Of a stretch of 64,000 nucleotides of DNA, positions 30,357 through 50,221 are shown piece by piece. Each line of letters begins with the position of its first letter. The first letter of the stretch is position 1. The stretch comes from an uncultured delta proteobacterium (lineage in GTDB: Bacteria; Desulfobacterota; Binatia; Binatales; Binataceae). The DNA is taken from the NCBI GenBank assembly GCA_963794325.1, contig CAWCDG010000009.1:32001-96000 (forward strand), written 5' to 3'. A program made the position numbers and the translations under genes. The notes below the pieces were generated by a model. It was not told where the DNA came from and ran no database searches. It saw only the letters and a program-made list of their open reading frames with translations.

Positions 30357-30441
30357 GCCGGGGTGGCGAAATGGCATACGCAGAGGACTTAAAATCCTCT
30401 GGAGCGAAAGCTCCGTGCGGGTTCGACCCCCGCCCCCGGCA
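30357..30441 (+). tRNA. tRNA-Leu (anticodon TAA), CCA not encoded
   Basis: GCCGGGG acceptor stem, AGAGGA-CTTAAAA-TCCTCT anticodon arm, long variable arm GGAGC-GAAA-GCTCC, GGTTCGA T-loop. Confidence 0.96.
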
Positions 30442-32344: not shown

Positions 32345-33349
32345 CTAGAAGAACGTCCTAAGGTCCATCCCCGTATAGAGGCTTGCCACCTGGTTCCCGT
32401 AGCCGTTGAAAGGCAGGGTTGGGCGACGGTGATACTCGCCGATCCGTCTTTCGGTCGCCTGGCTCCAGCGTGGATGGTCGACTGCGGGATTCACGTTCGC
32501 ATAAAAGCCGTACTCGTCCGGCCCCGCGATGTTCCATGAAGTAGGCGGCTGTTCCGCGGTCAGACTAATATTCACAATCGATTTGATCCCTTTGAAACCG
32601 TATTTCCACGGAACCACAAGGCGGAGAGGCGCCCCGTCCTGGTTCGGTAGCCGCTTACCGTATAGACCGACCGCCAGGATCGTCAGCGGATTCATCGCTT
32701 CGTCGATGCGCAGACCTTCGACGTAGGGCCATCGTAGAAGATCGGTGCGCTGACCCGGCATCTGTTGAGGATCTAGGAGTGACTTGAAGGCAACGTATTT
32801 CGCTCGCGAGGTGGGCGCGACAAGCTTCAAGAGATCTCCTAGCGGGAAACCCACCCATGGGATAACCATCGACCAGGCTTCGACGCAACGCATCCGGTAG
32901 ATACGTTCCTCAAGGAGAAACGATTTGATGAGCTGTTCAACCTCGAAAACTTGCGGGTGCGCCACCTCGCCATCGATCGCCACATGCCAGGGACGCGGTC
33001 TCAGGCTGTCGGCGTTCGCGGCCGGATCACTCTTGTCGGTGCCAAACTCGTAGAAGTTATTGTAGTTGGTTACGCCGTTGTAAGAGGTGTTCTTTTCCCC
33101 GGACGCGTAGTCGTAGTGCCGCGCAATGGTGAGCGCCGAGTCATCATCGGGCGCTCCAGTCGCGGTTGCCTTAGCTGTTTTCTCGTGGTCCTTTGCTCGA
33201 AGGCCTCGCATAAGCCAGAGCAGAGTGCTGCCAACCCCACTGCTTGTCGCCGCGAAGAGCAGCGAGCTCTTGATGAATTCGCGCCGCTGAAGGTACACCC
33301 TCTGGGGGGTGATTTCGCTCGTTGCGGGAATGTTACCGATGTCAGACAC
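32345..33349 (-). CDS. msrP: MsrP molybdoenzyme (periplasmic methionine sulfoxide reductase)
   Basis: Tat motif [48 protein letters not shown]. Confidence 0.95.
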
Positions 33350-33458: not shown

Positions 33459-33486
33459 TAGATGCCGTGATTGTCCGAAGGGTTAC
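33459..33486 (-). promoter_or_regulatory. ECF-type promoter upstream of msrP
   Basis: GTAACC-N18-TCTA. Confidence 0.65.
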
Positions 33487-33595
33487 CAATATAGCGGATG
33501 ATTCATCAGCCGCTTAGTCACGAATCAGGTGTCGTAGCCGGGAGCGTTACGCGCGATGTCGAAGCGCTCGAGGTCAATGACGGCCTGGCGCAACG

Positions 33596-33997
33596 TTATT
33601 CTGTCGGGTTCAGTAAGGGCGCGGGCGCGCAAGCGATTAACACAGTGCGTTCTAGTCCAGCTTCACGATGCTTGTGGATTTGCTGATATTCCGCCGTCAA
33701 TCCCATTTCGAATAGAGCCTTCGCACTTGGATATTCCACGAGTGCGACGGCGTCCCACTCGTCGGACGAATCGCCGATCAGCACCGACTCCGGCCGCCCA
33801 GACCACAAGACCTTCCCTCCGACTGCCTCGATCATTTTTACCACCCTTGAGCCGTATCGACCATACGCCTCCGCACCGGTTCCGGCCTCTTCTTGAGCCT
33901 TCGCCCTGAACTTGAGCAGGTTGAGCATCACGATCGGACCGGGGTGCTCTTTAATCAGTTCTGCGAACTTATTCGGGTCGGGACTGATATTGTTCAT
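33596..33997 (-). CDS. DUF1330 domain protein
   Basis: GPIVMLNLLKFR, WDAVALVEYPS, HREAGL. Confidence 0.85.
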   Translation of the reverse strand: MNNISPDPNKFAELIKEHPGPIVMLNLLKFRAKAQEEAGTGAEAYGRYGSRVVKMIEAVGGKVLWSGRPESVLIGDSSDEWDAVALVEYPSAKALFEMGLTAEYQQIHKHREAGLERTVLIACAPAPLLNPTE

Positions 33998-34057
33998 TTG
34001 GCTATCCTATCTACCTTTTTGGGATTCGTCAGCAAATCGAAACCAATTCAGGAACAC

Positions 34058-34750
34058 TCAAGTGTCATACCCCGGAGAGTTACGCGCGACGTCGGAGCGA
34101 TCGAGCATACGCTTCCGCCAAAGCGCAACCGGGTCTTCGTCTTGCAAAACCTTGAAGGGACTCACACTTCGCGCCCACATGAATCCGCTGAAGGCGATGT
34201 AGTCTCCGTAGTCGGGTTCATTTCCAGCCAGGAACGGCTGCATCCTAACAGTAGCGCGAAGGAGCTCGATACTCTGTTGAAACTCGGTGACCCGACTTAA
34301 GCGATGCGCGCCTGCCTGCTCAAGCGACATGCCTAGTTTACGCTCACGGCTGGACCGAAAGTACTCGCGATCCTTTTCGTGGAGATGGTTAAACAGATCC
34401 ACAATTATCAAAGGCATTAGCCCAGGCATCAGAACGGTATCGGTCCACAGCTCCATGAATCGCGCGAATGCCTTCCCACCACGTCCGCGGAACAGGCTAG
34501 GACGTTCGGGATTAGTCTGTTCCAGATGATTCGCGATCTCCCAGGAGCCCACCACGGCTTTCCCCGAATCAACCAGCACAGGTACACGGCCCTGACCTGA
34601 GAAAGCGATTACGTCTTTATCGGTGAACCGCCAAGGTATCGTCTCGACGGGTAGACCTTTATGTTCAAGCGCCAGCGTATCCGCCAGCCGTAAGGGCTGA
34701 ACCGCCGAGCGGGGTCTGCGCCCGCCAGATCGTAAAGGATGAGTGACCTC
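34058..34750 (-). pseudogene. glutathione S-transferase (LigE-like) with a frameshift near 34676 and no evident start codon
   Basis: ILYDLAGADPARRFSPYGWRI | LALEHKGLPVETIPWRFTDK..GRVPVLVD..SWEIANHL. Confidence 0.75.
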
Positions 34751-34809
34751 TAAGTGTATGATCCTCAGTAGCTTATCGCAGATTAGGTTATTGAACAGGC
34801 GACACCGGA

Positions 34810-35703
34810 TTAGCTGTTGCTAAGCATGAAATTGACGACCACGCGTGCCAGTTCCTCACCCTTATCTTCCTGCAGGAAATGACCCGCTCCAATTATCGTC
34901 GTATGCGGCTGATTGCGAGCTCCCGGAATTGCCGACTGGAGCAACCGCTCTCCGCCTTTCGTGACCGGATCGCCATCGCTGAACGCAGTAAGAAATGGCT
35001 TCTCCCACCTTCGGAGGACTTCCCAAGCCTTGCGATTTGCCGGCACTGCGGGATCGTCGGGCGCGATAGGAACGAGAATAGGAAATTGGCGCGCACCAGC
35101 CTTGAAGCGCTCGTCGGGAAAGGGCGCATCGTATGCGGCGGCAACCTCGGGCGGAAGTGCGTTCGCACATCCACCCTGGACAATCTGACCGATCGGGAAA
35201 GTCGGTGTCTCCTGCGAGAATTTGCGCCATGCCATGAACGCGTCACCGATTGGGCCTTCACCGGTCGGCAGTCCGGTATTCGCCGCGACGATGCGCGCAA
35301 ATCGCTCTGGATGCTCTGCTGCGACGCGCAGTCCTATCACTCCTCCCCAGTCCTGGCACACCAGAGTTATTCCACGAAGATCGAGCTTCTGAATGAATCG
35401 GGCGGTCCAGTTTACATGCCCTTGATAAGTGTAGTCTCCACGATTAGCTGGCTTATCCGACCGTCCAAAGCCGACCAGATCCGGCGCGATAGCGCGCAAT
35501 CCCGCGGAGACAAAAACGGGAATCAATTTTCGATACAGGTATGACCACGACGGCTCGCCATGGAGCATCAGCACGGGCGGCGCGCTCTGCGGTCCTTCGT
35601 CAACGTAGTGCATTCTCAAACCGCCAACTTCCACATAGCGCGGCTTGAATGGGTAACCGGGCAGATTCGAAAAGCGCTCATCAGGCGTGCGCAATATTTC
35701 CAT
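34810..35703 (-). CDS. haloalkane dehalogenase (DhlA/DhmA-like)
   Basis: LRTPDERF, HGEPSWSYLYR, QDWGG, GHFLQED. Confidence 0.92.
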   Translation of the reverse strand: MEILRTPDERFSNLPGYPFKPRYVEVGGLRMHYVDEGPQSAPPVLMLHGEPSWSYLYRKLIPVFVSAGLRAIAPDLVGFGRSDKPANRGDYTYQGHVNWTARFIQKLDLRGITLVCQDWGGVIGLRVAAEHPERFARIVAANTGLPTGEGPIGDAFMAWRKFSQETPTFPIGQIVQGGCANALPPEVAAAYDAPFPDERFKAGARQFPILVPIAPDDPAVPANRKAWEVLRRWEKPFLTAFSDGDPVTKGGERLLQSAIPGARNQPHTTIIGAGHFLQEDKGEELARVVVNFMLSNS

Positions 35704-35743
35704 CAGATTTCCTCCCAGAAATTGTGCCGACCCTTCAGTCTTC

Positions 35744-36121
35744 TTAATGGTGCCGAAGTGCCATCCGAATCGCGCGCAGCAAGCTTTCTTCATCAAAGGG
35801 TTTGACCAAGCTCGCGATCGGGTTAGCTTCGCGCATCATTTGCCTGGTCCACTTATCATCACGGCCGCTCATCAGGATGGTCGGCACGTGCCATTTTGAC
35901 GCAGCCAGACTCCAGCATAATTCGATCCCGTTCATCCCCGGCATATACACATCCAACAACAGGCACGCGTTGCCTATTGGGAGGTCGCCGCTCAGTAACT
36001 CTTCCGCGCTCTGAAAGTCGAGCACGATGAATCCCAAAACCTGCAACTGCCCTCGCAGCGCGCGACGTAGTGAGGTGTCGTCATCCACCACAATTACCGT
36101 GGCCGCCGCTCTATTCCGCAA
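35744..36121 (-). CDS. single-domain response regulator receiver (FixJ-like)
   Basis: VVDDD, LLLDVYMPGMNG, KPF. Confidence 0.85.
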   Translation of the reverse strand: MRNRAAATVIVVDDDTSLRRALRGQLQVLGFIVLDFQSAEELLSGDLPIGNACLLLDVYMPGMNGIELCWSLAASKWHVPTILMSGRDDKWTRQMMREANPIASLVKPFDEESLLRAIRMALRHH

Positions 36122-36338
36122 CTAACGATACCAACTGAGATGAAGAGTATCGTTCGGAAGGAAGAACAGGCGGCCTTGCAACATCTTGTCGGGGGAGGGA
36201 CCGATGCCCGGTACGAAGTGCGCCGGATTGAAGGCCGCCTGTCCAATCTTGGCGAAACAGTTTCCGTGATTAGGATTCAGCATGACTCTGCCAGCGAGCA
36301 CATAAGTCGATCGGCGCCGTCTCTAGGCGTCGCGCTCG

Positions 36339-36639
36339 TTACCAAATCCAAACCGGTTGAAGCGCTTGGTCCACCTGCTCCTGCGCGACCTGCTGCCCGC
36401 TCTGCATGCGTTGCACGAGTTGATCGATTTCGTAGCTCTTCTGCGCGAAGGCTGGGTTGTTCTTATTTCCTTCGCGGGCCTCGCGCTGCGTTGCTTGGGA
36501 GGCATGCTCTAGTTCAGCAATGGTTTGTGCGTTGGGCTGAACGGCAGAGTAACTTCTCGAAATTCCGACAGACCCGGCTAGAGCCGGCGACGAGAGAGTC
36601 AAAGCCACCGTTCCGGCGGCGAAAATTGTGCTTCCTCAT
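36339..36639 (-). CDS. small secreted helical protein (1-bp frameshift just after the ATG)
   Basis: ATG AGG AAG C | ACA ATT TTC... restores the signal peptide M(R)STIFAAGTVALTLSSPALA. Confidence 0.55.
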
Positions 36640-36658
36640 TGACTAACACCTCGGTAAT

Positions 36659-36686
36659 TAGAGTGGCGAAACCGGCGGAAGGTTAC
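36659..36686 (-). promoter_or_regulatory. ECF-type promoter
   Basis: GTAACC-N18-TCTA. Confidence 0.6.
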
Positions 36687-36805
36687 AGCCCAGCACTGAG
36701 TTTTGTGCACTTGGACCCAGATGAGATCGCCACCCGCGGGATGTTAGGATGGGCTCGCCGGTTGCAAGCGACACTAGTTGCGCCCATCCAGGTGCTGTCG
36801 AAGCA

Positions 36806-37630
36806 TCAGTTCTTAGCGACTGGGTACTCCGCGCTAGCACCCTCAATTCTGAGCGACGTAAGGTCTTGAATGAACGCCGCGACACCAAGATGCTCCAGTG
36901 ACCATGAAGGGTCGAGGTCAATAGTCATCTCCTGGACGAAAGAGCCAGGCTGCGTCGCGTCCAGTTCAAATGCCGGCAGCAATTTCCTCACGGTGTAATC
37001 GTAGGTGATTTCGCGCCCGCCGTTCTCGCCTGCGCCAATCTTGCTGACCAGACCGTTCTCGTAAATCGCCAGCATTACCACGAGCCGTCCGGACCCTGCG
37101 GAGCTCAACAATTGCGCGTTAACTTTGACCTGAAGTTTTCGAGACCCCGCTGGAGCGAGGCTCGTTTGAATGCTTGTGCGACCGCGCGGCGAGGTCGCAT
37201 GCGCAGCGGCCACCGCGCGCTCGATACTTCCAGCGTCAGAACCACTGCACTGCCACGCGCCGCCGATCACCATTTGAGGCGTGTACTCGCCGTCCAGGTT
37301 CATCGCCCGAGCGTAGTCGCTTTGTCGCTCAGACCATTGACGTGACGAAAACGGGTCAGCCCACCCTTGATTCCAGTAATCCACGTGGTAGGCCAGTGGG
37401 ATCACCGATTTTGACGAGGCGCCGAGCTCACTAATGAGCCCGTCGGCGGGCGGACAGCTGGAGCATCCTTCGGAGGTGAAAAGTTCCAGCACAACTGGCG
37501 CGCCAACTGCCGCTCCGTCCGTCTGAGAGAACGCAACTGCTTTATGAAAGAGACCGAATCCGATCGCGGCAACGGTTGCGACACTGACAATCCAGGGAAC
37601 AAGACCGAATCGCCCACGGGAGTTTCGCAT
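36806..37630 (-). CDS. DUF1223 thioredoxin-like secreted protein
   Basis: VVLELFTSEGCSSCPPAD, HVDYWN..WADPFS, YTPQMV. Confidence 0.9.
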   Translation of the reverse strand: MRNSRGRFGLVPWIVSVATVAAIGFGLFHKAVAFSQTDGAAVGAPVVLELFTSEGCSSCPPADGLISELGASSKSVIPLAYHVDYWNQGWADPFSSRQWSERQSDYARAMNLDGEYTPQMVIGGAWQCSGSDAGSIERAVAAAHATSPRGRTSIQTSLAPAGSRKLQVKVNAQLLSSAGSGRLVVMLAIYENGLVSKIGAGENGGREITYDYTVRKLLPAFELDATQPGSFVQEMTIDLDPSWSLEHLGVAAFIQDLTSLRIEGASAEYPVAKN

Positions 37631-37703
37631 AGTGACTGTACCTCTCAAGCGTAAACTCGCTGCCGGTCGCGAGGTTGAAGCAATGTTTCGATCTGCGCTG
37701 GCG

Positions 37704-38738
37704 TTACAAAGCATCTTCGATCTCCGGAATGCTCATGGAATCGGCGGTCAAGCCTGGATGGGCTACCTGCACGCATGCCGAGTCAGGGTCTGTTCGCTTC
37801 GCCATGATCGATCGCACAATCGAGGCTTGCGGCGCATTTTGATCGAACGTGACTGAATCGCCGGAGGGGCGAACGCCCAGATCACGCCACATCGCACCGA
37901 GGTCGGGCGTTACTGGAGTTGCTTTCATTTGGTCGTACAACTCCGTGAGGACCGGCACGCCGACGGCGTCGTCTCCAACCTTCAGAGCCCGAACCAGCGG
38001 CCACTCGTGCTCCATGTTGCCGCCAGCGCGGACAATTCCCCGCAGCGCGTCCTGGAGCCCATATCGATTGTTCGTGCGCTGATGAATCTCGACATCCGCC
38101 ATCAGGCAGAACAGCGCGCCGCCCCAATAGGTGCGGCCCCACGTGTGGGTGTTATCGAGGCCGCGATCGCCGGACGCGGGCAGTCCTTTCGGAAGGCCAT
38201 CCACCAGTTCAAGCCAGACTGTCTCCGGCGAAAGATCGCCGACTTGTGAGCGCGCGATTGGCTCGACGTAGGTGGCGATCCCTTCCTCGATCCAGTGGTG
38301 CTCGTGGGGAACCGAAGGGAACGCTAGGTGGACCATCTCATGCGTCATTACCCAGTCGTCTCGCAGGCTTGATTCAGTGGCGAACCTCGACAAGCCAACC
38401 CTGATCACCAAAGTCTCATCGACTAATACTGTCCTGCCGAAGATTACGCCCCTGCCTTCGCCGATCGGCACTACCTTTACGTCCACTTTCCGAACGGGGA
38501 AACCGCCGTAGTATTCGCTTACGGCGCATGCCGATCTTCGAACCCAGTCGAGGACCTCAGTGCGCGCCACGCCGAGCTCACCGGGATCGATTTCCACCTT
38601 GATCGAGGCGCCGCCAATCGAGAGTGACTCATTCGGAGCCGGAGTCTCAGCGGCCGCGTTCATCACGGCAGCGACGCTGAAGAAAAACAAAGCCGCGAAC
38701 ACGATTCCCACTGCGGATCTTAAGCTACTGAAATCCAT
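37704..38738 (-). CDS. secreted gluzincin-like metallopeptidase (putative)
   Basis: HEMVH plus WIEEGIATY; signal peptide. Confidence 0.7.
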   Translation of the reverse strand: MDFSSLRSAVGIVFAALFFFSVAAVMNAAAETPAPNESLSIGGASIKVEIDPGELGVARTEVLDWVRRSACAVSEYYGGFPVRKVDVKVVPIGEGRGVIFGRTVLVDETLVIRVGLSRFATESSLRDDWVMTHEMVHLAFPSVPHEHHWIEEGIATYVEPIARSQVGDLSPETVWLELVDGLPKGLPASGDRGLDNTHTWGRTYWGGALFCLMADVEIHQRTNNRYGLQDALRGIVRAGGNMEHEWPLVRALKVGDDAVGVPVLTELYDQMKATPVTPDLGAMWRDLGVRPSGDSVTFDQNAPQASIVRSIMAKRTDPDSACVQVAHPGLTADSMSIPEIEDAL

Positions 38739-38817
38739 CGTCGCCTTGTTCAAGAACGGGGCGAAGCGACTCTCGCCGCTTCGCCCCGTCTTGGAGGATT
38801 CGGCCTGCCAGCCGCCT

Positions 38818-40110
38818 CTATTGGCCCGAGAGCGACGCTGCTTCCATCGCACGGACCGTAAAAAATTCCTTATCGACCGCACCCTGATTGATGTACCAGC
38901 ATTCGTGTTCAGGAGTATGTTGCCCGGGCAGATAACACATCGTAGAGAAACCCCCTTGCGTGTCGATCCCGGCCGTGCCAACTACGAATTCCCGCTTGAA
39001 AGGATAAATCGCGATGCGCGCGTCGGGCACAGGCCGGTCACGATAAGCCAGCCAGTAGATGTGCGTGCGCCAGAGCTGGCCGCGCTGGTCGTAGGTGTCG
39101 ATGTAGGGCTCGAACCACACCTCGGAGTCCAGATACACGACCGTCTTCTGGTCGAGCGCGCCAGGGTTGTTGACGTCGCGACGCGGAGTCGCCTCGACGA
39201 TGTACATGTGGCGAGTCTCCCAGTTCTCCGGGCAGGCTGAAGCGCCGCCGTCGGTCGCACAGGTCACCTCCGGCGAATGAGCTGCGTGCACCGAGGCGAG
39301 CAACTCCTTCTCACCCAGAAATTTGTAGTCGTACTGCTCCGTCTTTGGGTTGAAGCCTGAGTAGTGATCCGGATCGTTGACCTGGGCGCCGGTTGCGGTG
39401 CTTAGAAGGGCTTCGTTCAGGCGGCGGACGCGTCGGCTGCCGGGGTTCCAGTCCCAGCTATCGTCGCCACGCTTGGGATCGGCGTAACGATAACGGATAA
39501 GTCCGGTTCCGCGTGCATCCTGTGGCGCTAGTACCGGGTAAAGCGCGAACAGCCAGAACCGGCCGGTCTTTTTGAAGTCGGGATCGACCGGCAGCGGCTC
39601 GACCTCGGTGCGACCGACCAGGTTGTAGCCCGCATAATGGCCGACTTCTATGTTGTCGATTATCTGCTGCTCCTTGCCGGGACGAATATATTCGCTCTGA
39701 CAGTCGAAAAAGCGCAGATCGTAATCGTCGCTCTGGATTGGCCGGAAGACGTTGTTCCAGATGACCTTGTTGGCAACGAAAGGATCATTCGCGTCGATCA
39801 GCGGAAAGGGCTGGCCGGCGACGTAGCCCACCATGCTGCGATGGTCCATCGTCAGACGAACCTGGGACGAGTACTTCTCGGTCGCGTCCATGTAGGGCGG
39901 TGGCCAATCGACCCGTTGAGTCGGCACGATGTTCATCTGCATCCCATGCTGAACCATGTAGTAGACGCCAGGCGAAATCAGGCTCTTGACCTTGGCAGCA
40001 TTCTCGGGCGTGATCACATCCCCCGGCTTAACCTGGGCATTCGCCATCGATGCCGCAAGAATAGACACTCCCACGCCTAGCATCGTCATCCTAAGTACTT
40101 TGCGAAGCAT
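38818..40110 (-). CDS. DUF1329 domain secreted protein
   Basis: VKPGDVIT, ATEKYS.QV, YVAGQPFP, RRVRRL. Confidence 0.8.
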   Translation of the reverse strand: MLRKVLRMTMLGVGVSILAASMANAQVKPGDVITPENAAKVKSLISPGVYYMVQHGMQMNIVPTQRVDWPPPYMDATEKYSSQVRLTMDHRSMVGYVAGQPFPLIDANDPFVANKVIWNNVFRPIQSDDYDLRFFDCQSEYIRPGKEQQIIDNIEVGHYAGYNLVGRTEVEPLPVDPDFKKTGRFWLFALYPVLAPQDARGTGLIRYRYADPKRGDDSWDWNPGSRRVRRLNEALLSTATGAQVNDPDHYSGFNPKTEQYDYKFLGEKELLASVHAAHSPEVTCATDGGASACPENWETRHMYIVEATPRRDVNNPGALDQKTVVYLDSEVWFEPYIDTYDQRGQLWRTHIYWLAYRDRPVPDARIAIYPFKREFVVGTAGIDTQGGFSTMCYLPGQHTPEHECWYINQGAVDKEFFTVRAMEAASLSGQ

Positions 40111-40178
40111 TACCCGAACCTCCTTGAAAGTGTTGGGCGTGTGGGCATCGATCTCCCCGCGCCGTGAAACCTTGTGTT

Positions 40179-40730
40179 TCAATGACTATCGTGTTGAGAG
40201 AGTAAGTGAGGATCTTCAACCAGGCCGGCCTCGTCATTAGGAGCTTCAGCCGAGCTCTTCGATTTGTTTTGTTGTAGCCATGAACTGATAACTGGCTTGA
40301 TAAGACCATCCATGCTCAGCCATCCGGCTCCCGAAAAGAACAGCCAGACGAAACTCAGCGCATAGAGCGGTTCATCGAGCTCGGCGAAGTCATCAAGGCC
40401 ACCGACATTCTTTAGCTTTACAGTCAGGATCGCGACGATCATGTTGATGATCATCGGGACCGAGACGAAGCGCATTCCCAGACCGAGAATTGTCAGCGCT
40501 CCGCCGAGGAACTCCGTGTATGCCGACAGTGCGGCGTTGAACCCGGGGTAAGGAATTCCCCATCCCTGGAACCTGGTCGTGAACGCGTCGAGGTTGTGAA
40601 TCTTGGCCCATCCGGTCTCCATGAAGAAGTAACCGACGAACAGTCGCATGAGGAGGGCGGGAATCCACCAGGCAGCCGATAGCCGATCGGAGAGTTCAGC
40701 CGCTGCCGTTACGAGCCTTTTGTAGTTCAC
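40179..40730 (-). CDS. DoxX family membrane protein (BufD-like)
   Basis: LMRLFVGYFFMETGWAKI, TEFLGG, GAGWLSMD; GGAGG upstream of GTG 40730. Confidence 0.88.
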   Translation of the reverse strand: MNYKRLVTAAAELSDRLSAAWWIPALLMRLFVGYFFMETGWAKIHNLDAFTTRFQGWGIPYPGFNAALSAYTEFLGGALTILGLGMRFVSVPMIINMIVAILTVKLKNVGGLDDFAELDEPLYALSFVWLFFSGAGWLSMDGLIKPVISSWLQQNKSKSSAEAPNDEAGLVEDPHLLSQHDSH

Positions 40731-40757
40731 TCTGCTGATGCCTCCATTCGCGCTAGT

Positions 40758-40784
40758 TAGATGCGGCATGGCGGCCGAGGTTAC
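40758..40784 (-). promoter_or_regulatory. ECF-type promoter upstream of doxX
   Basis: GTAACC-N17-TCTA. Confidence 0.65.
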
Positions 40785-40864
40785 AGACTCCTGTTCGGCA
40801 GAGATTTATCCCAACCCATAGCAGCCGGGATGAGACGTTTCATTCGGCAAAGCATCAAAGTTGT

Positions 40865-41155
40865 ATGTATCGCGCAGACAGTATCGCAGAGCTGACAGGA
40901 ACCTTCCGGGTCGAAGAGCGCACAAAGCTTCGAATCGCACCACTGCTCCAAGCTGCCTCTTCCTTCAACGTACGAGCATTCCCTCTCTCTTCGAACGTGC
41001 CGGAGCTCCCGTCGAGGATCCCTGATCAAATTATCGACTTTTACGCTTTCGTGTTTTGCCAGAGCGGGTTTCGAAACTTGGGTCTGACTTTCGAGCAGTT
41101 CCTGGCGGTCATCTCCGTCGTCAAATTTCCGGAATTGCGGCCGACAGACCGCTGA
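40865..41155 (+). CDS. hypothetical protein
   Basis: 96-aa ORF in a gene-sized gap (FYAFVFCQSGFRNLGLTFEQFL). Confidence 0.5.
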   Translation: MYRADSIAELTGTFRVEERTKLRIAPLLQAASSFNVRAFPLSSNVPELPSRIPDQIIDFYAFVFCQSGFRNLGLTFEQFLAVISVVKFPELRPTDR

Positions 41156-41162
41156 TACGTTA

Positions 41163-41835
41163 ATGATGCCTCTTCCACATCAACGCAGCCCAATCAGCGC
41201 CGGAGAAAGACCGCTTTGGTGCTGGCGGGCGGTGGCATTACGGGCTTCCTCTACGAAGTCGGAGTCTTAACCGCCCTTGACGAGCTGGCCGGCCGAGCCC
41301 TGTCGAACGACTTTGATGTCTATGTCGGGACCAGCGCCGGTGCGGTGCTGGCTGCCCTGCTCGCCAATGGTGCTCGCGCGGCGGAGATCTTCGCAGCGAT
41401 GACTCAGAACGAGGCGGGGAGTCCTTTCTACTTTGAGTCTCGCGACATCCTGGGGGTCGGCTCTGGCGGGCCGCTGCGGATGATGGGTCAGTTCGCGCGC
41501 GCGACGTTCGGAACTCTGGGACGCGCGCTTCGGGCCAAACAACGGCCTCGTTCGCACAGATGTTTGCGGACTTTCAAGAGCATCATCCGCCCGGCTTCTA
41601 TTCGACCGCAGCCCTCGAGATGACGCTCTGCGACCGATTTTCAGTGCTTGGGTACAGCCACCAGTTCGACAAGCGATCGCGGGAACTTTTTGTTACCGGG
41701 ACAGACATCGATACCGGCGAGCATCTGGTTTTCGGCGCAGGTGAGTTCGCAGATTCTCACATTTGCCGTGCGGTCGCCGCCTCATGCGCAATCCCAATTC
41801 GAAAGCATACCGGCGGCCCTATGAGATCGGTGTGA
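41163..41835 (+). pseudogene. patatin-like phospholipase, frameshifted and 3'-truncated
   Basis: LVLAGGG and GTSAG present, frame change near 41550, similarity stops at AASCAIP with no DGG motif. Confidence 0.75.
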
Positions 41836-41861
41836 AACCTTTTTCTCGCTGCGGACATCAA
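41834..41861 (+). promoter_or_regulatory. ECF-type promoter upstream of the RiPP precursor
   Basis: GAAACC-N18-TCAA. Confidence 0.6.
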
Positions 41862-41898
41862 AGCCACATACTAAACCACTCCTTAGGAGGAGAAAAAA

Positions 41899-42162
41899 AT
41901 GAACGCGAAGAATGCTCTGATCGCCAGTGCGGTGGCGATGCTGTTGGTCACCGGTGCCGTGAATGCGCGCGCCCAAGAGGGCACGGCCACCAACCAGGTG
42001 AAGTGCGTCGGTGCCAACAGCTGCAAGGGACAGTCGTCCTGCAAATCCGCCCAAAATGACTGCAAGGGCAAGAACGCCTGCAAAGGACAGGGCTTCGTCC
42101 AAACGTCCACGCAGGATTGCAAGGACAAGGGCGGTACCGTCGCACCTCCGGACGGCAAGTAG
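41899..42162 (+). CDS. bufferin-type (BufA2-like) Cys-rich RiPP precursor with Sec-pathway signal peptide
   Basis: Six Cys: KCVGANSCKGQSSCK..NDCKGKNACKGQGF..DC; AGGAGG RBS; directly upstream of DUF692. Confidence 0.85.
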   Translation: MNAKNALIASAVAMLLVTGAVNARAQEGTATNQVKCVGANSCKGQSSCKSAQNDCKGKNACKGQGFVQTSTQDCKDKGGTVAPPDGK

Positions 42163-42209
42163 ATCAACTGGGGGGACCTCGGCTTCGCCGCCGGGGTCCT
42201 GCCAAATCC

Positions 42210-43052
42210 ATGAGCTTCTTACCCCATCTAGGGCATGGCGTCGGTCTTCGGACGGTTCACTACCCGCACGTTCTGGACAAGTCGGCGGGTGCGGACTGGT
42301 TCGAAGTGATCTCGGAAAACTTCATGATTGCGGGCGGCCGGCCTCTACAGATTTTGGAGAAGGCCCGGGAGCTCGCGCCGGTAGTTCTTCACGGCGTGTC
42401 GCTCAATATCGGCGGAACCGATCCTCTAAGAGAGGACTATCTGGCCGAACTCGAATTGTTGATTCGACGGTTCGCTCCTGCGTGGGTTTCCGATCATCTT
42501 TGTTGGGGAGCAGTCGGCGGACGCTTTGCCCACGATCTCTTGCCGCTTCCTTACACTGAAGAAGCGGTAAGGCACGTCGCCGCTCGAATCCGCCACGTCC
42601 AGGACCGACTCGGACGCCGCATCCTGATGGAGAATGTTTCCAGCTACCTCACCTATTCAATTTCGTCCATGCCGGAATGGGTGTTCGTTTCCGCCGTCGC
42701 CGAGGAAGCCGATTGCGGCATCCTGTTGGACGTAAACAACATTTACGTCAACGCAATCAACCACGGCTTCTCTCCGCTGGAATATCTTTTGGGAATTCCC
42801 AGGGAGCGGGTCGGGCAGATCCACCTGGCCGGTCATAGCAGCTCGGGAGATTTGCTGATCGACACTCACGACCATCCCGTTCCGGCACCGGTATGGCGGC
42901 TCTATCGCGAGGCGGTGCGACGGTTCGGGCGGGTATCAACGCTGGTGGAATGGGACGATCAGATACCTCCTTTTGAAGTACTCCTGGCCGAAGCAAATCG
43001 CGCGCGTGAAATTGAGGGCGAAGTACTCAATGCCAGCTCCATCTCTCTATGA
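42210..43052 (+). CDS. DUF692 multinuclear non-heme iron oxidase (MNIO, BufB-like)
   Basis: GVGLR, EVISENF, HGVSL, SDHLCW, ENVSSY, DVNNIYVN, IHLAGH, IDTH, EWD. Confidence 0.95.
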   Translation: MSFLPHLGHGVGLRTVHYPHVLDKSAGADWFEVISENFMIAGGRPLQILEKARELAPVVLHGVSLNIGGTDPLREDYLAELELLIRRFAPAWVSDHLCWGAVGGRFAHDLLPLPYTEEAVRHVAARIRHVQDRLGRRILMENVSSYLTYSISSMPEWVFVSAVAEEADCGILLDVNNIYVNAINHGFSPLEYLLGIPRERVGQIHLAGHSSSGDLLIDTHDHPVPAPVWRLYREAVRRFGRVSTLVEWDDQIPPFEVLLAEANRAREIEGEVLNASSISL

Positions 43053-43815
43053 AGTCCAGCGCTTGTTCTGGGAGTCTGTAGCGGTCCAGCCCGGCCGAGA
43101 CTCAATTGCACCCGCCTTCGTGCGTCTGGTTCGCGGTCACGACGACAGCGATCGGAAAGCACGAATCGGTGTTTACGCGGAGGCTTACTTTTTGCGGCTC
43201 CGCGACGTCCTGCGAGAAGACTTCCTTCGCGTAGCCGCTCTGGTCGGCCCCGCGCAATTTGATGAAATTGTCAAAGGTTATCTTGAGGCGTTTCCTTCGA
43301 GGTGGCCGTCGGTGCGTCACCTGGGCCACGCGCTGTCTGAATTCCTCCGGCACAGAACAGACACGCCCAAGTGCCTTGCCGATCTCGCCGAACTGGAATG
43401 GGCCCGCATTGAGGTCTTTGACGCGCCCGATGCTGAATGTGCGACAATCGAGGACTTTATCTCCGTTCCGGCAGATGCCTGGCCGGCTCTGCGCTTCTCG
43501 GCGATACCCGCGATCAAAACTTTGCGCGCTCAATACCCCGTGCAGCGCCTTTGGTCTGGTGGCTCATCACTCGACGTGTCAGCGGAAGAGACCGCTCTGC
43601 GTGTCTGGCGCGCAAATGACTGCCGAGTCTTTCATGCGCCGATGGACCAAAGAGAGTCGGCGGCGCTCCGGAAGATGATATCGGGCCAACCGTTCGCGAC
43701 AATCTGTGAAACCTTCGCTGACTTGCCCGAGGATGGAGCGGCGCAAGAATCGGCGGCGCTTCTTGTACGATGGATTGAGGACGGAATCATCCATCGAATC
43801 GACCAAGCGGCGTAG
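43030..43815 (+). CDS. DUF2063 MNIO partner protein (BufC/HvfC-like)
   Basis: RIGVYAEAYFLRLRDVLREDF, DLAELEWA. Confidence 0.88.
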   Translation: MPAPSLYEVQRLFWESVAVQPGRDSIAPAFVRLVRGHDDSDRKARIGVYAEAYFLRLRDVLREDFLRVAALVGPAQFDEIVKGYLEAFPSRWPSVRHLGHALSEFLRHRTDTPKCLADLAELEWARIEVFDAPDAECATIEDFISVPADAWPALRFSAIPAIKTLRAQYPVQRLWSGGSSLDVSAEETALRVWRANDCRVFHAPMDQRESAALRKMISGQPFATICETFADLPEDGAAQESAALLVRWIEDGIIHRIDQAA

Positions 43816-43816
43816 C

Positions 43817-44104
43817 CTACGAACCACTTCCATTCTTGAGTCTACTGTCCAGGATCCTGTTGACAAGAGACTTCGGCATCATCGTTTCCGCGGAATTGTT
43901 CGGGTCGTCCGCTATCCGCTTGGCCGCGCTGATTGTCAGCTCATATCCCTTCAGATAGTCGGAGCATCGCACGCACTTCTGGCCGTGCTGCAAAAACGAT
44001 CGACGATCAACATCGCTCAATTCACCGTCTCGTAATCTACCAATCAGGCCGACGAACTGGCGGCAAGTCACTTCACGCTGCACGATTTGCTTCCCTCTCC
44101 TCAT
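43817..44104 (-). CDS. zf-HC2 zinc-finger anti-sigma factor
   Basis: C...DGEL...HGQKCVRC (HxxxCxxC); start codon uncertain. Confidence 0.8.
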   Translation of the reverse strand: MRRGKQIVQREVTCRQFVGLIGRLRDGELSDVDRRSFLQHGQKCVRCSDYLKGYELTISAAKRIADDPNNSAETMMPKSLVNRILDSRLKNGSGS

Positions 44105-45455
44105 CAGAGCCTTTCGATGGCGTCGTGCTCAGAGGACGTCTGGCAGTCACGCATGCGAAATCCTTTGCGAACCATAGATCGAGCGTCCAATCGAGGGCAA
44201 CTCGTACCTTCTTCTCTAGCCGCGGGAGCTTGAATAGGTAGATAGTGCGCCAGAGCCACCAGGCAAGAAACCCTGAGAAATTGATGCCAAAAACATTAGC
44301 CACCCCGCTGCGTCGGCCGATTGCGGCGAGCCGGCCTAACGTCGAGAACCGAAAGGATTTCTTTTTTCCTCCCAGAATGTCCGCGGCGACGTTGCGTGCA
44401 ACGCATCTGCCTTCGCGAATCGCGTGCTGAGCGGTAGGTGGATGAAATCCTCCGGTCTTGCGGTCGGGAATCGACGCGCAATCGCCCACCGCCCAGACAC
44501 CGGGAAAGTCTTTAACCTGTAGATAGTCATTAACGAGAATACGTCCCTTGCTTTTGGGGATCGGCAAAGCCGCAACGAGGGGATTCTGTGCATTCCCGGC
44601 GGCCCAAATCAGCGTGGTGGCGGGGATTGTCTTACCATCTGAGAGTTCGACCAGACCGCCGCGCACCGCAGTGACTCGCACGCGCGTGAATATCTCGACG
44701 CCGCGGGCAGCCAGCTTTCGTTGCGCATAGGCGCCGAGCTTGGCGCCTAACTCAGGCAAGATAAACTCCTCGGACGATATCAGAATCGTGCGAACAAATT
44801 CCGGTGTCAGGTTTGGATAAAAACGAATCGCGGCGCGGACGAAGTCATGGATCCCACCCAGCGTTTCGACTCCGGCAAAACCGGCCCCCACTACCACGAA
44901 CGTGAGCAGAGGCTGGCGCTCGCCGGCCGCGCACTCCGAGTTCGCTTCCTCGAGATGCGTGATCAGACGGTTCCTCAATTCGATCGCGTCGTCGAGGGTC
45001 TTGATAGTCAGCGCTGCGTCCTGGACTCCCGGTAGGCCGAAGAAGTTCGTGCTCGAACCCAGCGCGATTATCAGATGGTCGTACGGGAGTTCGTGGACGT
45101 GGCGATCGAAGCCATGGGTGACGGTAACGCATCGTCGTTCGAGATTTATCTTTTCTATATTCCCAGTGAACGTCTTTACGCGCCGGAGCAGCTTCCGAAG
45201 GGGATTGATGATGGTGTTCATTTCAAGATCGCTCGCCGCGACTTCATGCAACATCGGCGTGAATAGAAAGTAGTTATCCCGCGTCACTAGGGTGATGTTT
45301 ACGTTGTCACGGTCGCGGAGAGCGTGTTCCAGTTCAATCGCGGCGTATATGCCGCCGAATCCGCCTCCGAGTATAAGGACGCGGCAGGCGCGATCTGCGC
45401 CTGTTTCAGGCTCCGCCCCCCGGCATCCGAAGTCATGGTTTACCGCTTGGTCCAA
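44073..45455 (-). CDS. NDH-2 family NAD(P)H/FAD oxidoreductase
   Basis: GGGFGG, FTPMLHEVA, GAGFAGVE, GDCA, PPTAQHA, AWWLWR.IY. Confidence 0.9.
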   Translation of the reverse strand: MDQAVNHDFGCRGAEPETGADRACRVLILGGGFGGIYAAIELEHALRDRDNVNITLVTRDNYFLFTPMLHEVAASDLEMNTIINPLRKLLRRVKTFTGNIEKINLERRCVTVTHGFDRHVHELPYDHLIIALGSSTNFFGLPGVQDAALTIKTLDDAIELRNRLITHLEEANSECAAGERQPLLTFVVVGAGFAGVETLGGIHDFVRAAIRFYPNLTPEFVRTILISSEEFILPELGAKLGAYAQRKLAARGVEIFTRVRVTAVRGGLVELSDGKTIPATTLIWAAGNAQNPLVAALPIPKSKGRILVNDYLQVKDFPGVWAVGDCASIPDRKTGGFHPPTAQHAIREGRCVARNVAADILGGKKKSFRFSTLGRLAAIGRRSGVANVFGINFSGFLAWWLWRTIYLFKLPRLEKKVRVALDWTLDLWFAKDFACVTARRPLSTTPSKGSDEEREANRAA

Positions 45456-45505
45456 ATGATTTCTCCGCTGTGGAACCGTTGAAATTACCGGATTGTTCCA
45501 TACCT

Positions 45506-45532
45506 TAGATGCGCCTCTGGCCGCGGGGTTTC
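45506..45532 (-). promoter_or_regulatory. ECF-type promoter upstream of NDH-2/anti-sigma
   Basis: GAAACC-N17-TCTA. Confidence 0.65.
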
Positions 45533-45617
45533 ATTATTCCTGTTGGCGTACTGCCGCATCGGCACTAGAATCGATCCGGCAGACAACTCCGTGACGATAG
45601 GGCTGGAGTTCTCCTTG

Positions 45618-47576
45618 ATGGGGAAGAACGGGTTCACGACAGAAGGCTCTTCCGGCGATGCAGCGCTGCGCGAGATCGTCGAGGGCATAGAATCGGAAAC
45701 GGGCGAGCGTTTCTTCTACTCGCTCGTCAAACACCTCTCGTCCGCACTCGGTTGCGAGTACGCGTTCGTTTCCGAACTGCCGGCAGACCGTTCGCGCTTT
45801 CGGACGCGTGCCGTGTGGGGACGCGGAAGTTTCATGGAAAACTTCGAGTCTCCTCTCGATGGTACTCCGTGCGAAGCAGTTCTGAACGGCAAGGTCTCTC
45901 ATCATCCCGAACAGATCCGCCAGCTCTTCCCCGCCGACGCCGGCCTCAAGCAGTGGGGTGTCGAGAGCTATTGCGGCGTTCCCTTGCTTGATTCCGCCGG
46001 AACCGTCGTCGGCCACCTGGCGATCCTGTCTGAGCGGCCGATGTTGGACGGACCCCGCGGGCTCGCGATCATGCGAATTTTCGCGGCCCGCGCGCGCGCC
46101 GAACTAGAGCGCCTACGCACAGAGGAAGCACTGCGCCAGGTGAACGAGGCGTTGGTACGGAGCGAAGAACGCTTTCGCGACCTATTCGACGAGGCTCCGA
46201 TAGCCTACGTCCATGAAGGGCTTGACTCGCGGTTCATCGAGGCTAACCGCACGGCGATGAGGATCCTCGGCCTCAATGCCGAAGAGATCGACGGAATGAC
46301 GGGGAAGTCTTTGATGCCCGATACTCCCGAGGCCCAGCAACGCTTAGGCGAGTGGCTCGCTTCAATGGAGCGCGGCACCGCTACGACAGGCACCGTCCTC
46401 GAGATACGCCGCAAAAATGACGGTAGGCCCGCGTGGATCCAGTGCTGGTCAAGGCCAGCTCCCGACGGCAGTTACACGCGGACTATGTTCATCGATGTAA
46501 CGGACCGCGTGCTCATGGAGCGAGAGAAGGTGCGCCTCCAAGCTCAAAACACGTACCTGATTGAAGAGATCAAGGAAACGCACAACTTCGAGGAGATCGT
46601 CGGGCAGAGCCGGGCTCTCGCCGAGGTAATCGAAAAGGTAAAGCTCGTCGCGAGTACGGATTCGTCGGTCCTGATTCTGGGCGAAACCGGCACCGGAAAG
46701 GAGCTGGTGGCGCGCGCCGTGCACTCGAACAGCGAGCGCAGGAATCGGCCGCTGGTCAAGGTGAACTGCGCCGCTCTTCCTGTTGGTCTCATCGAAAGCG
46801 AGTTGTTTGGTCATGAGAAGGGAGCCTTCACCGGCGCGACCGATCGCCGTATCGGCCGGTTTGAGCTCGCGCACGGAGGGACTATCTTTCTGGACGAAAT
46901 CGGCGAGATGCCGCCGGATTTGCAGGTCAAGCTGCTGCGCGTTCTCCAGGAGCACGAGTTCGAGCGGGTCGGTGGCTCGAATCTGATCAAGGTCGACGTG
47001 CGTGTGATTGCCGCGACCAACCGCGACCTTCTGCGATCGGTTTCCGAAGGAATGTTTCGGCAGGATCTCTACTACCGCCTCAACGTCTTCCCGGTTCACC
47101 TGCCGCCGCTGCGCGATCGGCGCGAGGACATTCCGCCGCTGGTACATTACTTCGTCCGCCGCTTCAGCCTGAAAATCGGGCGCAAGATAACTCGCATCCA
47201 GCGCGAAACGATGGAGCGGCTGGTCAGCTACGCTTGGCCGGGAAATGTACGCGAGCTCGAAAACGTGATCGAGCGATCGGTAATCCTGTCGCGGGGGAGC
47301 GAACTTGAAGTCGCGCCCGGCGTCTTGGCAGAAACCGCGGCTGTTGCGCACACGCAAACCGGCAGGCCCGCGCATGAGGATAAGAACCTGTCGGTTGCTC
47401 CGCCGCAAAGCATCGATCAGGTGGAACGCAATCACATCCTCGAAGTTCTGATGCGAACCAACTGGCGAATCGAAGGAGCCGATGGAGCGGCGGCGTTGTT
47501 GAACCTCAATCCCAGCACATTGCGCAGCCGGATGAAAAAGCTCGGCGTTCAGCGGAGCACGCAAGGGGTTTCGTAG
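45618..47576 (+). CDS. sigma54-dependent activator (GAF-PAS-AAA+-HTH, FhlA-like)
   Basis: [41 protein letters not shown]-terminal HTH. Confidence 0.93.
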
Positions 47577-47658
47577 GTCCGCGATATGTCGTGGGCGCGC
47601 TTCGCGGCTCGCGGTACCCAAAAAGCCTAAATCCCCGGAATCATTGCGATCTCGGTCG

Positions 47659-47674
47659 TGGCCTGCGCCTTGCT
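47659..47674 (+). promoter_or_regulatory. candidate sigma54 promoter
   Basis: TGGCCTGCGCCTTGCT (GG-N10-GC) just upstream of ATG 47687. Confidence 0.55.
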
Positions 47675-47686
47675 CTACCAGAGGTC

Positions 47687-48613
47687 ATGATCAGAATCAC
47701 CGTCGTTCCCCGTGAGCACAGTGCGACTCGAGTCATCGTCGAGGGGCGGATAGCCAAGGCCGCATCGCTCGAATTGGCCGGTGTATGTGACCAGCATCTT
47801 GCCGGCGGAGAAAACCTTGAGCTCGATCTGTCGGCTGTGACATTCGCGGACAGTGACGGCGTGACCCTGGTGCGTGATCTGGTTAAGAAGGGCTGCGTAC
47901 TAGAGGAATGCTCCGAGCTGGTACGTACTCTGGTCGGGGATCAATCGTCGCAATCGCCAAAGTCCAATGGTGCTGGCAACGAAAACGAACGGCAGATGCT
48001 CGCGCAACTACGCGCCGGCGACGACGGCGCCTTCGAGCTGGTCGTGCAGCGATACGGCGACCGCATGCTGGCGACCGCCCGCAGATTTCTTAAAAACGAG
48101 AGCGACGCGCAAGACGCTGTCCAGGAGGCGTTCGCCTCTGCATTTCGCGCGCTCAACAAATTCAATGGCGACGCGATGCTTTCTACCTGGCTTCATCGCA
48201 TTGTCGTGAACGCGGCGCTCGTGCAGTTGCGGTCCAAAAGACGTAGAGCCGAACGGACGATACAGGACTTGCTTCCGCGCTTCGACCAGGAGGGCGAGTG
48301 GATCGGCGATCCGGTCACTTGGACCGATGCCAGCGAGACCATTTTGGAACGTCGCGATTCACGCGAGATGGTGCGGCGATGCATCGAGCGACTTCCCGCG
48401 ATATACCGTTCGGTCGTTCTGCTGCGCGATATCGAGGAGCTGGATACAGACGAGACTGCACGATCCCTTGCGATCACCCCGAACACAGTCAAAGTGCGGC
48501 TCCATCGTGCTCGCCAAGCGCTCAAGACTCTCATTGAGCGAGAGCTTGGCCTCCAGTTCTCTAATTCGAACCAAATCGGCTCATGCGATCGTGAGCACCG
48601 CACTTCGCTCTAG
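47687..48613 (+). CDS. ECF sigma factor with N-terminal STAS (anti-anti-sigma-like) domain
   Basis: LDLSAVTFADSDG STAS motif; DAQDAVQEAF, STWLHRIVVN, TVKVRLHRAR. Confidence 0.88.
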   Translation: MIRITVVPREHSATRVIVEGRIAKAASLELAGVCDQHLAGGENLELDLSAVTFADSDGVTLVRDLVKKGCVLEECSELVRTLVGDQSSQSPKSNGAGNENERQMLAQLRAGDDGAFELVVQRYGDRMLATARRFLKNESDAQDAVQEAFASAFRALNKFNGDAMLSTWLHRIVVNAALVQLRSKRRRAERTIQDLLPRFDQEGEWIGDPVTWTDASETILERRDSREMVRRCIERLPAIYRSVVLLRDIEELDTDETARSLAITPNTVKVRLHRARQALKTLIERELGLQFSNSNQIGSCDREHRTSL

Positions 48614-49528: not shown

Positions 49529-49575
49529 ACCGGGGTGTTCTCGATTGCGGCATTCCTGAGCCTCTTGCCGCCTCT

Positions 49576-49989: not shown

Positions 49990-50221
49990 CTGGCGATCTT
50001 CTGTTTCCGTGGACTGTCGGAGACGTGACACGCGGGTGAGGCCTACAAGGTTGTGCGAGGACTTTCCGAACCGTGCCAATTGGATGCAATGAGAGGGCCT
50101 CGGGTTACACATAGGCGCGGAGGTCGACCCCGCATCCGATCGAAGGATCGAGCGGCGCAATCGCGGGTGCTCGCTCACGGCCTTCGCGAAACCAATGGTC
50201 CTCGCCGGCATCTTAGTAAAG

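Follow-up and report, generated by a model that had tools for sequence, protein, structure and literature searches.

A stretch of 64,000 nt from the genome of an uncultured soil delta proteobacterium of the Binatia (contig CAWCDG010000009.1, positions 32,001 to 96,000; hereafter the window) carries, on an island at a tRNA-Leu gene, what appears to be a two-tier sigma factor cascade. In this cascade, an enhancer-binding protein (EBP) would activate the sigma-54 holoenzyme of the host, sigma-54 would transcribe the gene of an extracytoplasmic function (ECF) sigma factor with a fused STAS domain, and this sigma factor would start transcription at a set of island promoters, with a soluble zinc-finger anti-sigma factor (ZAS) as the brake. 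We put the probability of this reading, which was drawn from sequence comparisons, at about 70%. Coordinates are positions in the window (G000:C9:32001-96000) unless a contig or locus label is given; the host genome G000 (contigs labelled C4, C9 and C10) is 4.45 Mb in size and 85% complete.

An earlier note on this DNA had proposed one ECF-type promoter motif, G(T/A)AACC-N17/18-TC(T/A)A, before five transcription units. All five sites (the first five lines below) lie exactly where it had placed them, each points at its named unit, and four of the five read CATC(T/A)A at -10. Two further sites, which that set had missed, were added. To rank the sites, a matrix was trained on 29 sites from other loci (L086-L117 and L128) and then run genome-wide, which gave 80 matches; the island sites rank 1, 2, 4, 5, 6 and 21 among them.
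33459..33486, - strand, ECF promoter of msrP-msrQ-redoxin, rank 1 genome-wide
36659..36686, - strand, weak ECF-like site with a good -35, a -10 core of CACTC and a -10 matrix score of about -6; a doubtful member
40758..40784, - strand, ECF promoter of the doxX unit, rank 2 genome-wide
41834..41861, + strand, ECF promoter of bufA2BC, -10 GACATCAA, rank 21 of 80
45506..45532, - strand, ECF promoter of ndh-anti-sigma, rank 4 genome-wide
50080..50108, - strand, added ECF site before the 137-aa gene, rank 5, retained upstream of every full-length orthologue in the loci examined
50188..50215, + strand, added ECF site before an FAD oxidoreductase gene, rank 6, ATG 6 nt behind, -35 decayed in several relatives

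The motif is commoner than background: there are 5 matches in 12.1 kb, compared to 0.16 expected from all other matches or 0.07 with a repeat removed (Poisson P = 8e-7 and 1e-8, respectively, both optimistic since the pattern had been picked on these very sites). Moreover, 100 dinucleotide shuffles of window positions 30442-49600 gave a mean of 0.08 matches and a maximum of 2. In the whole genome the first pattern has 65 matches, and 35 of these are copies of one palindromic REP-like repeat that imitates the -35 of the motif. The results support an ECF-type promoter, but TC(T/A)A is not its -10 core; it is merely a local tail, and across the 31 distant loci the first pattern has just 2 matches. 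The core conserved at -10 is GCATC-N-AA, in a pattern that reads GWAAC-N15/16-GCATC. Thus, of the original set, four sites have a good core, while the 36659 site lacks it and stands before a frameshifted gene. The FAD oxidoreductase transcript is probably leaderless because its ATG lies 6 nt behind the 50188-50215 site. Outside the island, good sites were found before an alpha/beta hydrolase gene (C4:1660701) and a paralogue of the 137-aa gene (C4:1951072). A site before an efflux adaptor gene (C4:1480370) resembles the ndh site, but it was rejected, having ACGTCT as its -10 and falling outside the top 40 matrix matches.

We fetched 73 loci with the sigma core, comprising 22 near loci (at least 73% identity), 31 distant loci (48-64%) and 20 loci of other ECF sigma factors (at most 38%). 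The pattern GWAAC-N15/16-GCATC was found at 54 sites in the near loci compared to 2.7 in shuffles (21 of 22 loci, which are kin with shared spacer sequence and hence not independent) and at 27 sites in the distant loci compared to 2.8 in shuffles (16 of 31 loci). The 20 loci of other ECF sigma factors had 2 sites compared to 2.0 in shuffles. In the distant loci the spacing is specific, with 21 sites at N15, 6 at N16 and 0-4 at each of 16 other spacings. The four good window sites alone define GWAAC-N16/17-CATC, and this pattern was found 39 times in the distant loci compared to 7.0 in shuffles (19 of 31 loci). An ATG lies 8-14 nt behind GCATC at 9 of the 27 distant sites compared to 59 of 1546 other GCATC, as expected of leaderless or short-leader starts. 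Orthologous islands retain both promoter elements, -35 and -10, upstream of ndh, bufA, doxX, msrP and the small gene behind the weak site, although these islands are closely related. Among 20 congeners, GWAACY-N14/15-GCATCYAA gave 35 matches in the 9 with the sigma factor and 2 in the 11 without it, and msrP was found in 8 of the former and 2 of the latter, both sigma-lacking copies being without the motif. In four Planctomycetota loci, the motif also occurs at similar positions within the sigma gene itself (L091:8243, L098:8342, L109:8349 and L116:8336), and a ZAS gene follows it in L091, L098 and L116; this is possibly an internal promoter for the anti-sigma factor, or a codon coincidence.

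The putative reader of these sites is encoded in the island itself:
47687..48613, + strand, STAS-ECF sigma fusion of 308 aa, with STAS at residues 1-85 and a sigma2 plus sigma4 core; sister clade to ECF29

By its domains (PF04542 and PF08281, with no region-3 match) and its fold matches to AlgU, sigmaE and SigW, this protein is assigned to the ECF (group 4) sigma factors. It is rare, occurring in 7 of 301 genomes of a phylum-wide draw (E at most 1e-35), and the fusion is full-length in most of 120 homologues among the matches listed. The host genome has 12 sigma70-region-2 matches. The STAS domain matches the fold of RsbV (6m36_H, TM 0.69 by target), but the position of the phosphorylated serine is not conserved (Ser in 25 of 51 homologues, Arg in 14). 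In contrast, all of 51 near homologues have Cys34 and Cys75, which 9 and 10, respectively, of 15 distant STAS domains retain (15 of 17 rows were counted; L028 and L086 were dropped because their sigma4 region had been aligned).

On pSymB of S. meliloti 1021, the only match was RpoE8 (ECF29), with 41% identity, and this is the nearest characterised relative found. Two GGGAAC-N15-GCATCCAA sites lie beside rpoE8, and the one before rpoE8 has a mapped start (PMC6180224). The RpoE8 promoter has the same -10, GCATC, and the same 15-nt spacing as the island motif, with a -35 that differs at one position. In a tree of 32 rows, which included ten other ECF-type sigma factors of the genome and left out the housekeeping sigma factor, RpoE8 is sister to the island sigma clade (support 90/87), while the ten others fall outside. 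The comparison with RpoE8 ties the sigma lineage to GCATC independently of pattern fitting. Since the motif is enriched around distant homologues of the island sigma factor, and since the -10 and spacing match those of RpoE8, the island sigma factor is the likely reader of the sites, as the earlier note had supposed.

The assignment to a described ECF group is less firm. The earlier comparison with Caulobacter SigF does not hold as an identification, and SigF/ECF16 identity was rejected on the -10 sequence and the anti-sigma type: the island system has a GCATC -10, a soluble zinc anti-sigma factor and an N-terminal STAS domain, whereas SigF has CGAA and the membrane protein NrsF. The ECF16 mark, NrsF/DUF1109 at +1, was looked for; the +1 gene encodes a HEAT-repeat protein, and no NrsF match was found among the 28 proteins scanned. 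ECF29 membership was not assigned, the RC(E/D) motif being present in RpoE8 and absent from the C-termini of the clade loci displayed, and an anti-sigma factor being present; the match to the ECF29 model PRK11922 also scored 180 bits, below the cut-off of 204. ECF26, a first guess from the PRK11922 match, was rejected because ECF26 is described with a GGAATAAA/GTT promoter and a transmembrane anti-sigma factor. The island sigma factor possibly belongs to ECF270, with which it was compared by description only.

Neither the sigma gene nor the EBP gene has an ECF site before it in the window, by pattern or by matrix, and positive autoregulation of the sigma factor was therefore rejected. Sigma-54 promoters have a -24/-12 consensus, GG-N10-GC, and such an element is found directly before the sigma gene, with a candidate activator and binding site upstream:
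45618..47576, + strand, GAF-PAS-AAA+-HTH sigma-54 EBP with an intact GAFTGA motif
47579..47594, + strand, near-palindrome, candidate upstream activator sequence, the only genome match to its pattern
47659..47674, + strand, sigma-54 -24/-12 promoter, TGGC-N7-TTGCT (GG-N10-GC), with a predicted start about 2 nt before the ATG, hence near-leaderless

RpoN is encoded in the host genome. Together, the GG-N10-GC element, the palindrome, the GAFTGA-bearing EBP and RpoN argue that the sigma gene lies behind a sigma-54-dependent promoter. This is kept in relatives: within 130 nt before STAS, the strict sigma-54 pattern was found in 27 of 33 STAS-bearing loci (22 near kin and 11 distant) compared to a background of 3.8%. 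The activator was found in 20 of 22 near and 11 of 31 distant loci. A stand-alone STAS gene occupies this position in 6 of the distant or class-level loci; one further row of this kind is a long run-on frame. In the GAF domain of the EBP, all 16 distant copies compared conserve Cys85 and all 15 compared conserve His133, and a PDB search with the GAF-PAS region gave no match.

The candidate brake lies in an operon divergent from the sigma gene, behind ndh:
43817..44104, - strand, soluble zinc-finger anti-sigma factor (ZAS) of 95 aa, zf-HC2, with C14, H40, C44 and C47 invariant in 23 of 23 rows

ZAS genes were found in 18 of 22 near and 13 of 31 distant loci; in the latter, 8 are at +1, 1 is fused to the sigma factor and 4 are divergent. 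Because homologues lie at +1 of the sigma gene or are fused to it in distant phyla, ZAS can be tied to the island sigma factor. ZAS is also predicted to bind the sigma core. A model of the complex scored 0.77 compared to 0.00 for the best control, where the mark for this score is reached by 116 of 157 solved pairs and 2 of 215 mismatched pairs; like complexes (SigW-RsiW) have been solved, and the result shows likeness more than binding. The model runs agree in at least 96% of contacts, with a partner pLDDT of at least 89. The named contacts are on sigma2 and sigma4 only, all within core residues 113-283, and unnamed residues are uncertain. No kinase-type anti-sigma factor was seen in the island. 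The earlier proposal of negative feedback through the sigma factor's own anti-sigma factor is supported, as the ndh-ZAS unit behind the motif would give a negative loop.

Taken together, these results suggest the following mechanism. The cytoplasmic GAF-PAS EBP would bind the palindrome at 47579 and, on a signal, activate the host sigma-54 holoenzyme at 47659, so that the STAS-ECF sigma factor is produced. The sigma factor would then read GWAAC(C)-N14/15-GCATC-N-AA at the footprinted sites and start six units, namely msrPQ-Sec-redoxin, doxX and the genes behind it, bufA2BC, ndh-ZAS, the 137-aa protein and the FAD oxidoreductase, and perhaps a weak seventh. For shut-off, ZAS made from the ndh promoter would bind the sigma core. 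In other zinc anti-sigma factors, thiol oxidation or metal displacement of the zinc frees the sigma factor; by analogy, the same event in ZAS would form a second, cytoplasmic redox or metal gate. The loop would thus be switched on by sigma-54 and off by ZAS, with no positive autoregulation. The term "self-contained" in the earlier note overstates the case: the sigma gene, without its own ECF site in the window, sits behind a sigma-54 promoter and would therefore need host RpoN, the redoxin would need the selenocysteine (Sec) machinery of the host, no tyrosine integrase is in the island, and there are the few good sites outside it.

The genes behind the ECF sites are:
30529..31719, - strand, redoxin-DsbD_N selenoprotein candidate, an AhpC/TSA redoxin (UxxC) fused to DsbD_N, whose start overlaps the msrQ stop (ATGA)
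31320..31336, - strand, SECIS-like hairpin that begins 17 nt after the first base of UGA, kept in 4 of 4 copies
31716..32342, - strand, msrQ, NF003831 above cut-off
32345..33349, - strand, msrP, NF003767 above cut-off
36339..36639, - strand, small exported protein of no known family, behind the weak 36659 site
36806..40110, - strand, DUF1329, HExxH-motif protein (HExxH by eye, no family match) and DUF1223, behind doxX
40179..40730, - strand, doxX (BufD-like), Pfam DoxX
41899..42162, + strand, BufA2 bufferin precursor with six Cys, NF050166 89.8 compared to a cut-off of 60
42210..43052, + strand, BufB MNIO maturase, NF050167 367.6 compared to a cut-off of 310
43027..43815, + strand, BufC partner (DUF2063), PF09836 56.5 compared to a cut-off of 27.2
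44073..45455, - strand, NDH-2-like FAD oxidoreductase, overlapping the anti-sigma start
49576..49989, - strand, 137-aa protein of a multicopy family without a Pfam match, behind the 50080-50108 site
50222..51385, + strand, FAD-dependent oxidoreductase, likely start 50222 and not 50195

With a six-Cys BufA2, an MNIO BufB and a DUF2063 BufC, the island is assigned a Buf2 bufferin cluster, for which Cys modification and copper binding are predicted. The DUF1329, HExxH and DUF1223 genes are on the same strand as doxX and are probably co-transcribed with it. Bacterial SECIS elements have a defined geometry relative to the UGA codon. The Sec-redoxin of the earlier note is upheld as a bacterial selenoprotein candidate: an in-frame TGA (31351-31353) stands in W-U-P-Y-C at the redox Cys position and is kept in 4 of 4 copies examined, together with the hairpin, and SelA, SelB and tRNA-Sec are all encoded in the host genome. 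In a Gemmataceae copy (L104) the stem is kept despite changes on both sides. A chromosomal paralogue of the redoxin-DsbD_N fusion (G000:C4:560675-561712) has the same TGA and hairpin and no island motif upstream. The small exported gene is frameshifted right after its ATG in this assembly; of its 4 orthologues, 3 have an intact frame and the fourth is broken at another place. The 137-aa protein has seven paralogues elsewhere in the genome, one of which also has an ECF motif upstream.

The predicted outputs would repair periplasmic methionine sulfoxide and thiols and export a copper-binding peptide, and an oxidant or metal stress is therefore the most likely trigger. For copper or HOCl specifically, which the earlier note had named, analogy with SigF of Caulobacter and Azospira gives about even odds, and the stimulus is the weakest step of the mechanism. 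The earlier note had described an envelope stress system; sensing looks cytoplasmic, with a GAF-PAS activator and a soluble ZAS, although most outputs are exported.

Other bufferin loci of the genus served as natural controls. A second, core Buf2 locus is common, with BufB in 28 of 36 congeners, and a SigH-like ECF sigma factor lies within the 1.5-kb flank of 20 of 30 core Buf2 loci examined. The core precursor is often preceded by GGAAC...GTTTAGAC and not by the GCATC motif. In the host genome, the core Buf2 locus (C10, L140:2757-6395) is transcribed away from a SigH-like ECF sigma factor and a zf-HC2 membrane-type anti-sigma factor, and it has GGAAC-N18-GTT before bufA. In congener G006 (L144:4889-8936), a SigF-NrsF pair lies beside doxX, bufA2 and msrPQ; the island motif is absent, and no MNIO gene separates bufA2 from msrP. 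Of the 30 core-search loci, L060, whose contig has a sigma factor of the clade, carries the GCATC motif before bufA, and so does L064, at a distance of 160 nt and as an unexplained exception. Seven matches of the first pattern in core bufferin loci were rejected as island motifs, being mostly a coding-region match plus two sites before the sigma side. Because core Buf2 with SigH-like sigma factors, SigF-NrsF in L144 and the island STAS-ECF sigma factor flank the same outputs, these outputs appear to be wired to three ECF types in one genus (STAS-ECF/ZAS, SigH-like and SigF-NrsF), and GCATC appears to follow the STAS-ECF clade.

The region from 30381 to 52168 is flanked by a 61-nt repeat of the tRNA-Leu(TAA) 3' end:
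30357..30441, + strand, tRNA-Leu(TAA), whose 3' 61 nt (30381-30441) form the left att-like repeat
52108..52168, + strand, right att-like repeat, 95% identical to the tRNA-Leu 3' end, closing a 21.7-kb island

The GC content is 57.9% compared to about 60%, and the island sigma factor is present in 11 of 36 congeners searched. The att repeats at a tRNA 3' end, this patchy presence and the shifted GC content identify an integrative genomic island. Four PF00589 (tyrosine integrase) matches were found in the genome, none of them on contig C9; serine recombinases were not searched. A third copy of the tRNA-Leu 3' end (G000:C9:97435-97479) lies just past the window and implies a second, tandem island from position 52168 on. 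Within the island, 33596-36121 encodes DUF1330, a truncated GST, a haloalkane dehalogenase and a lone receiver domain without the motif, which are likely passengers. A 96-aa protein of no assigned family (40865-41155) is kept in island copies and has two paralogues elsewhere in the genome. A frameshifted patatin-like phospholipase remnant (41216-41835), directly 5' of the bufA promoter, is broken or missing in relatives too. An A+T-rich inverted repeat (52986-53061, by eye) before a TetR-like gene is probably the operator of that gene. Three soil or rhizosphere metatranscriptomes (6-9% of words; contigs only, with no start, strand or level) were set aside and not used.

Several points weigh against the cascade. 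The GCATC pattern was refined after seeing the loci in which it was counted, 15 of 31 distant loci have no GCATC site, and in the near loci the motif and the sigma factor are co-inherited on one island. In the whole genome the excess at N15 and N16 is small (34 and 32 compared to 16-30 at other spacings). The relaxed sigma-54 pattern, which was found in the last 60 nt before STAS in 33 of 33 loci (background 6.2%), was set after seeing those sequences. The RpoE8 branch is long and is not starred. In S. meliloti, overexpressing RpoE8 failed to induce any target, including the gene that follows a perfect site (PMC6180224), so that such sites may need more than the sigma factor. A congener in which the island sigma factor was not found (G028, 87% complete) has a perfect site before msrB (L146:3396-3896), one of the 2 matches in sigma-lacking congeners. 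Finally, motif targets in distant phyla are mixed (SDR, glucose dehydrogenases, a GH63-like hydrolase, YHS, DM13, ferritin-like and HbpS-like proteins) and do not point to copper alone.

These mixed targets would fit a different use of the same circuit, as a broad stationary-phase or general-stress switch with a metabolic signal on GAF-PAS, where the bufferin and MsrPQ are mere cargo in this genus. We regard this as possible but less likely. It would also fit that among the 31 distant loci just 4 have bufB and 2 have msrP-like genes and that the genome already holds a second Buf2 locus with its own SigH-like sigma factor; however, genes with redox functions turn up repeatedly behind or close to the motif in different phyla (ndh in 8 and doxX in 7 of the 31 loci), the zinc ligand set of ZAS is complete, and the GAF domain keeps Cys85 and His133. 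There is a slim chance that a chromosomal ECF sigma factor reads the sites and that the island sigma factor serves otherwise. One candidate is the sigma factor encoded at G000:C2:329219, with GTAACC in front of its gene; two chromosomal ECF sigma factors have GTAACC in their upstream DNA, but these sites lack GCATC at the right spacing (by eye). The msrB site in G028 and the different -10 of the 36659 site would suit such a reader, whereas the motif travels with the sigma clade into Planctomycetota and Acidobacteriota, is nearly missing from island-lacking congeners that hold the core ECF set, and is linked to the sigma lineage independently by RpoE8. That the motif recurs by chance and common descent, or marks relic promoters of an island in decay, is very improbable and largely refuted for the clade: the patatin remnant, the frameshifted small gene, the lack of an integrase and the frameshifts in several relatives' island copies do indicate decay, but spacing and start codons are specific in distant phyla, and the frames of the sigma factor, EBP, ZAS, msrPQ and bufABC are intact here.

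A more far-reaching joint reading, which we consider rather doubtful, is that STAS is a new ECF control domain with a built-in thiol or metal sensor (Cys34 and Cys75) that locks the sigma factor or competes with ZAS, and that the clade is an unrecognised cross-phylum regulator of Buf2 bufferins. If true, the regulon would fire only when a sigma-54 signal and a cytoplasmic redox or metal signal coincide, as an AND gate, and within a single genus three unrelated ECF systems, this clade among them, would have been attached to the same genes. In the classification paper (PMC7826278), STAS has no mention in the main text and one in the portion of the supplement covered (the member tables are outside it), as a separate ECF19 gene. 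Literature searches gave nothing relevant joining sigma54, ECF, enhancer binding protein and STAS domain, nor on Binatota and bufferin, nor on Neisseria, sigma E, msrAB and DUF692.

Compared to known systems, the output is familiar, while the control circuit would differ from that of SigF; the system itself is well supported by comparison. Caulobacter SigF-NrsF (ECF16) likewise controls yedY (msrP), two DUF692 bufferin operons, DoxX and its own anti-sigma factor (PMC3511200, PMC11626156), and its -35 is also GTAACC (PMC3511200). Its promoter, however, is GTAACC-N16-CGAA and NrsF is a membrane protein (PMC3511200), compared to GCATC and a soluble ZAS in the island, and the descriptions, in the portions covered, have no STAS fusion or sigma-54 tier. 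In Azospira, SigF drives yedYZ under reactive chlorine (PMC4436054). ECF29 (RpoE8) is sister to the island sigma clade in the tree, with the GCATC -10 and the 15-nt spacing in common, but its members are described as carrying RC(E/D) in a C-terminal extension and as lacking an anti-sigma factor (PMC7826278), whereas the island clade lacks RC(E/D) and has ZAS; the -35 is GGAAC in ECF29 and G(A/T)AAC in the island clade. No ECF29 member is described as studied in detail and no target as found (PMC6180224, PMC7826278). ECF270 resembles the distant loci in having a soluble ZAS at +1, fused in some members, and in its occurrence in Deltaproteobacteria and Zavarzinella (PMC7826278). Its description, as far as covered, gives no conserved promoter and no further context (PMC7826278), and in the window ZAS has moved to a divergent operon. 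RsbV, SpoIIAA and RsfB are STAS anti-anti-sigma factors of the fold matched by the N-terminus, but the island domain is fused to the sigma factor and does not conserve the phospho-Ser position. Separate STAS genes (at -1) are described beside ECF-ZAS pairs in ECF19s7 and ECF19s18 (PMC7826278). A parallel in wiring is HrpS-RpoN-HrpL, in which an EBP and sigma-54 transcribe the gene of an ECF sigma factor that in turn governs the regulon of an island, there for type III secretion (PMC5109040), whereas the present island has a GAF-PAS EBP, a STAS-ECF sigma factor with ZAS, and predicted repair and metal-binding outputs. The island would thus add a sigma-54-to-ECF cascade outside type III secretion, and it supplies a promoter consensus and a regulon that can be tested for an ECF clade, a neighbour of ECF29 with members in Binatia, Planctomycetota, Acidobacteriota and Myxococcota. 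An ECF sigma factor that runs MsrP, bufferin and DoxX is already known logic; the regulator and the control circuit are what differ, and the parts of this circuit are all small and can be rebuilt in E. coli.

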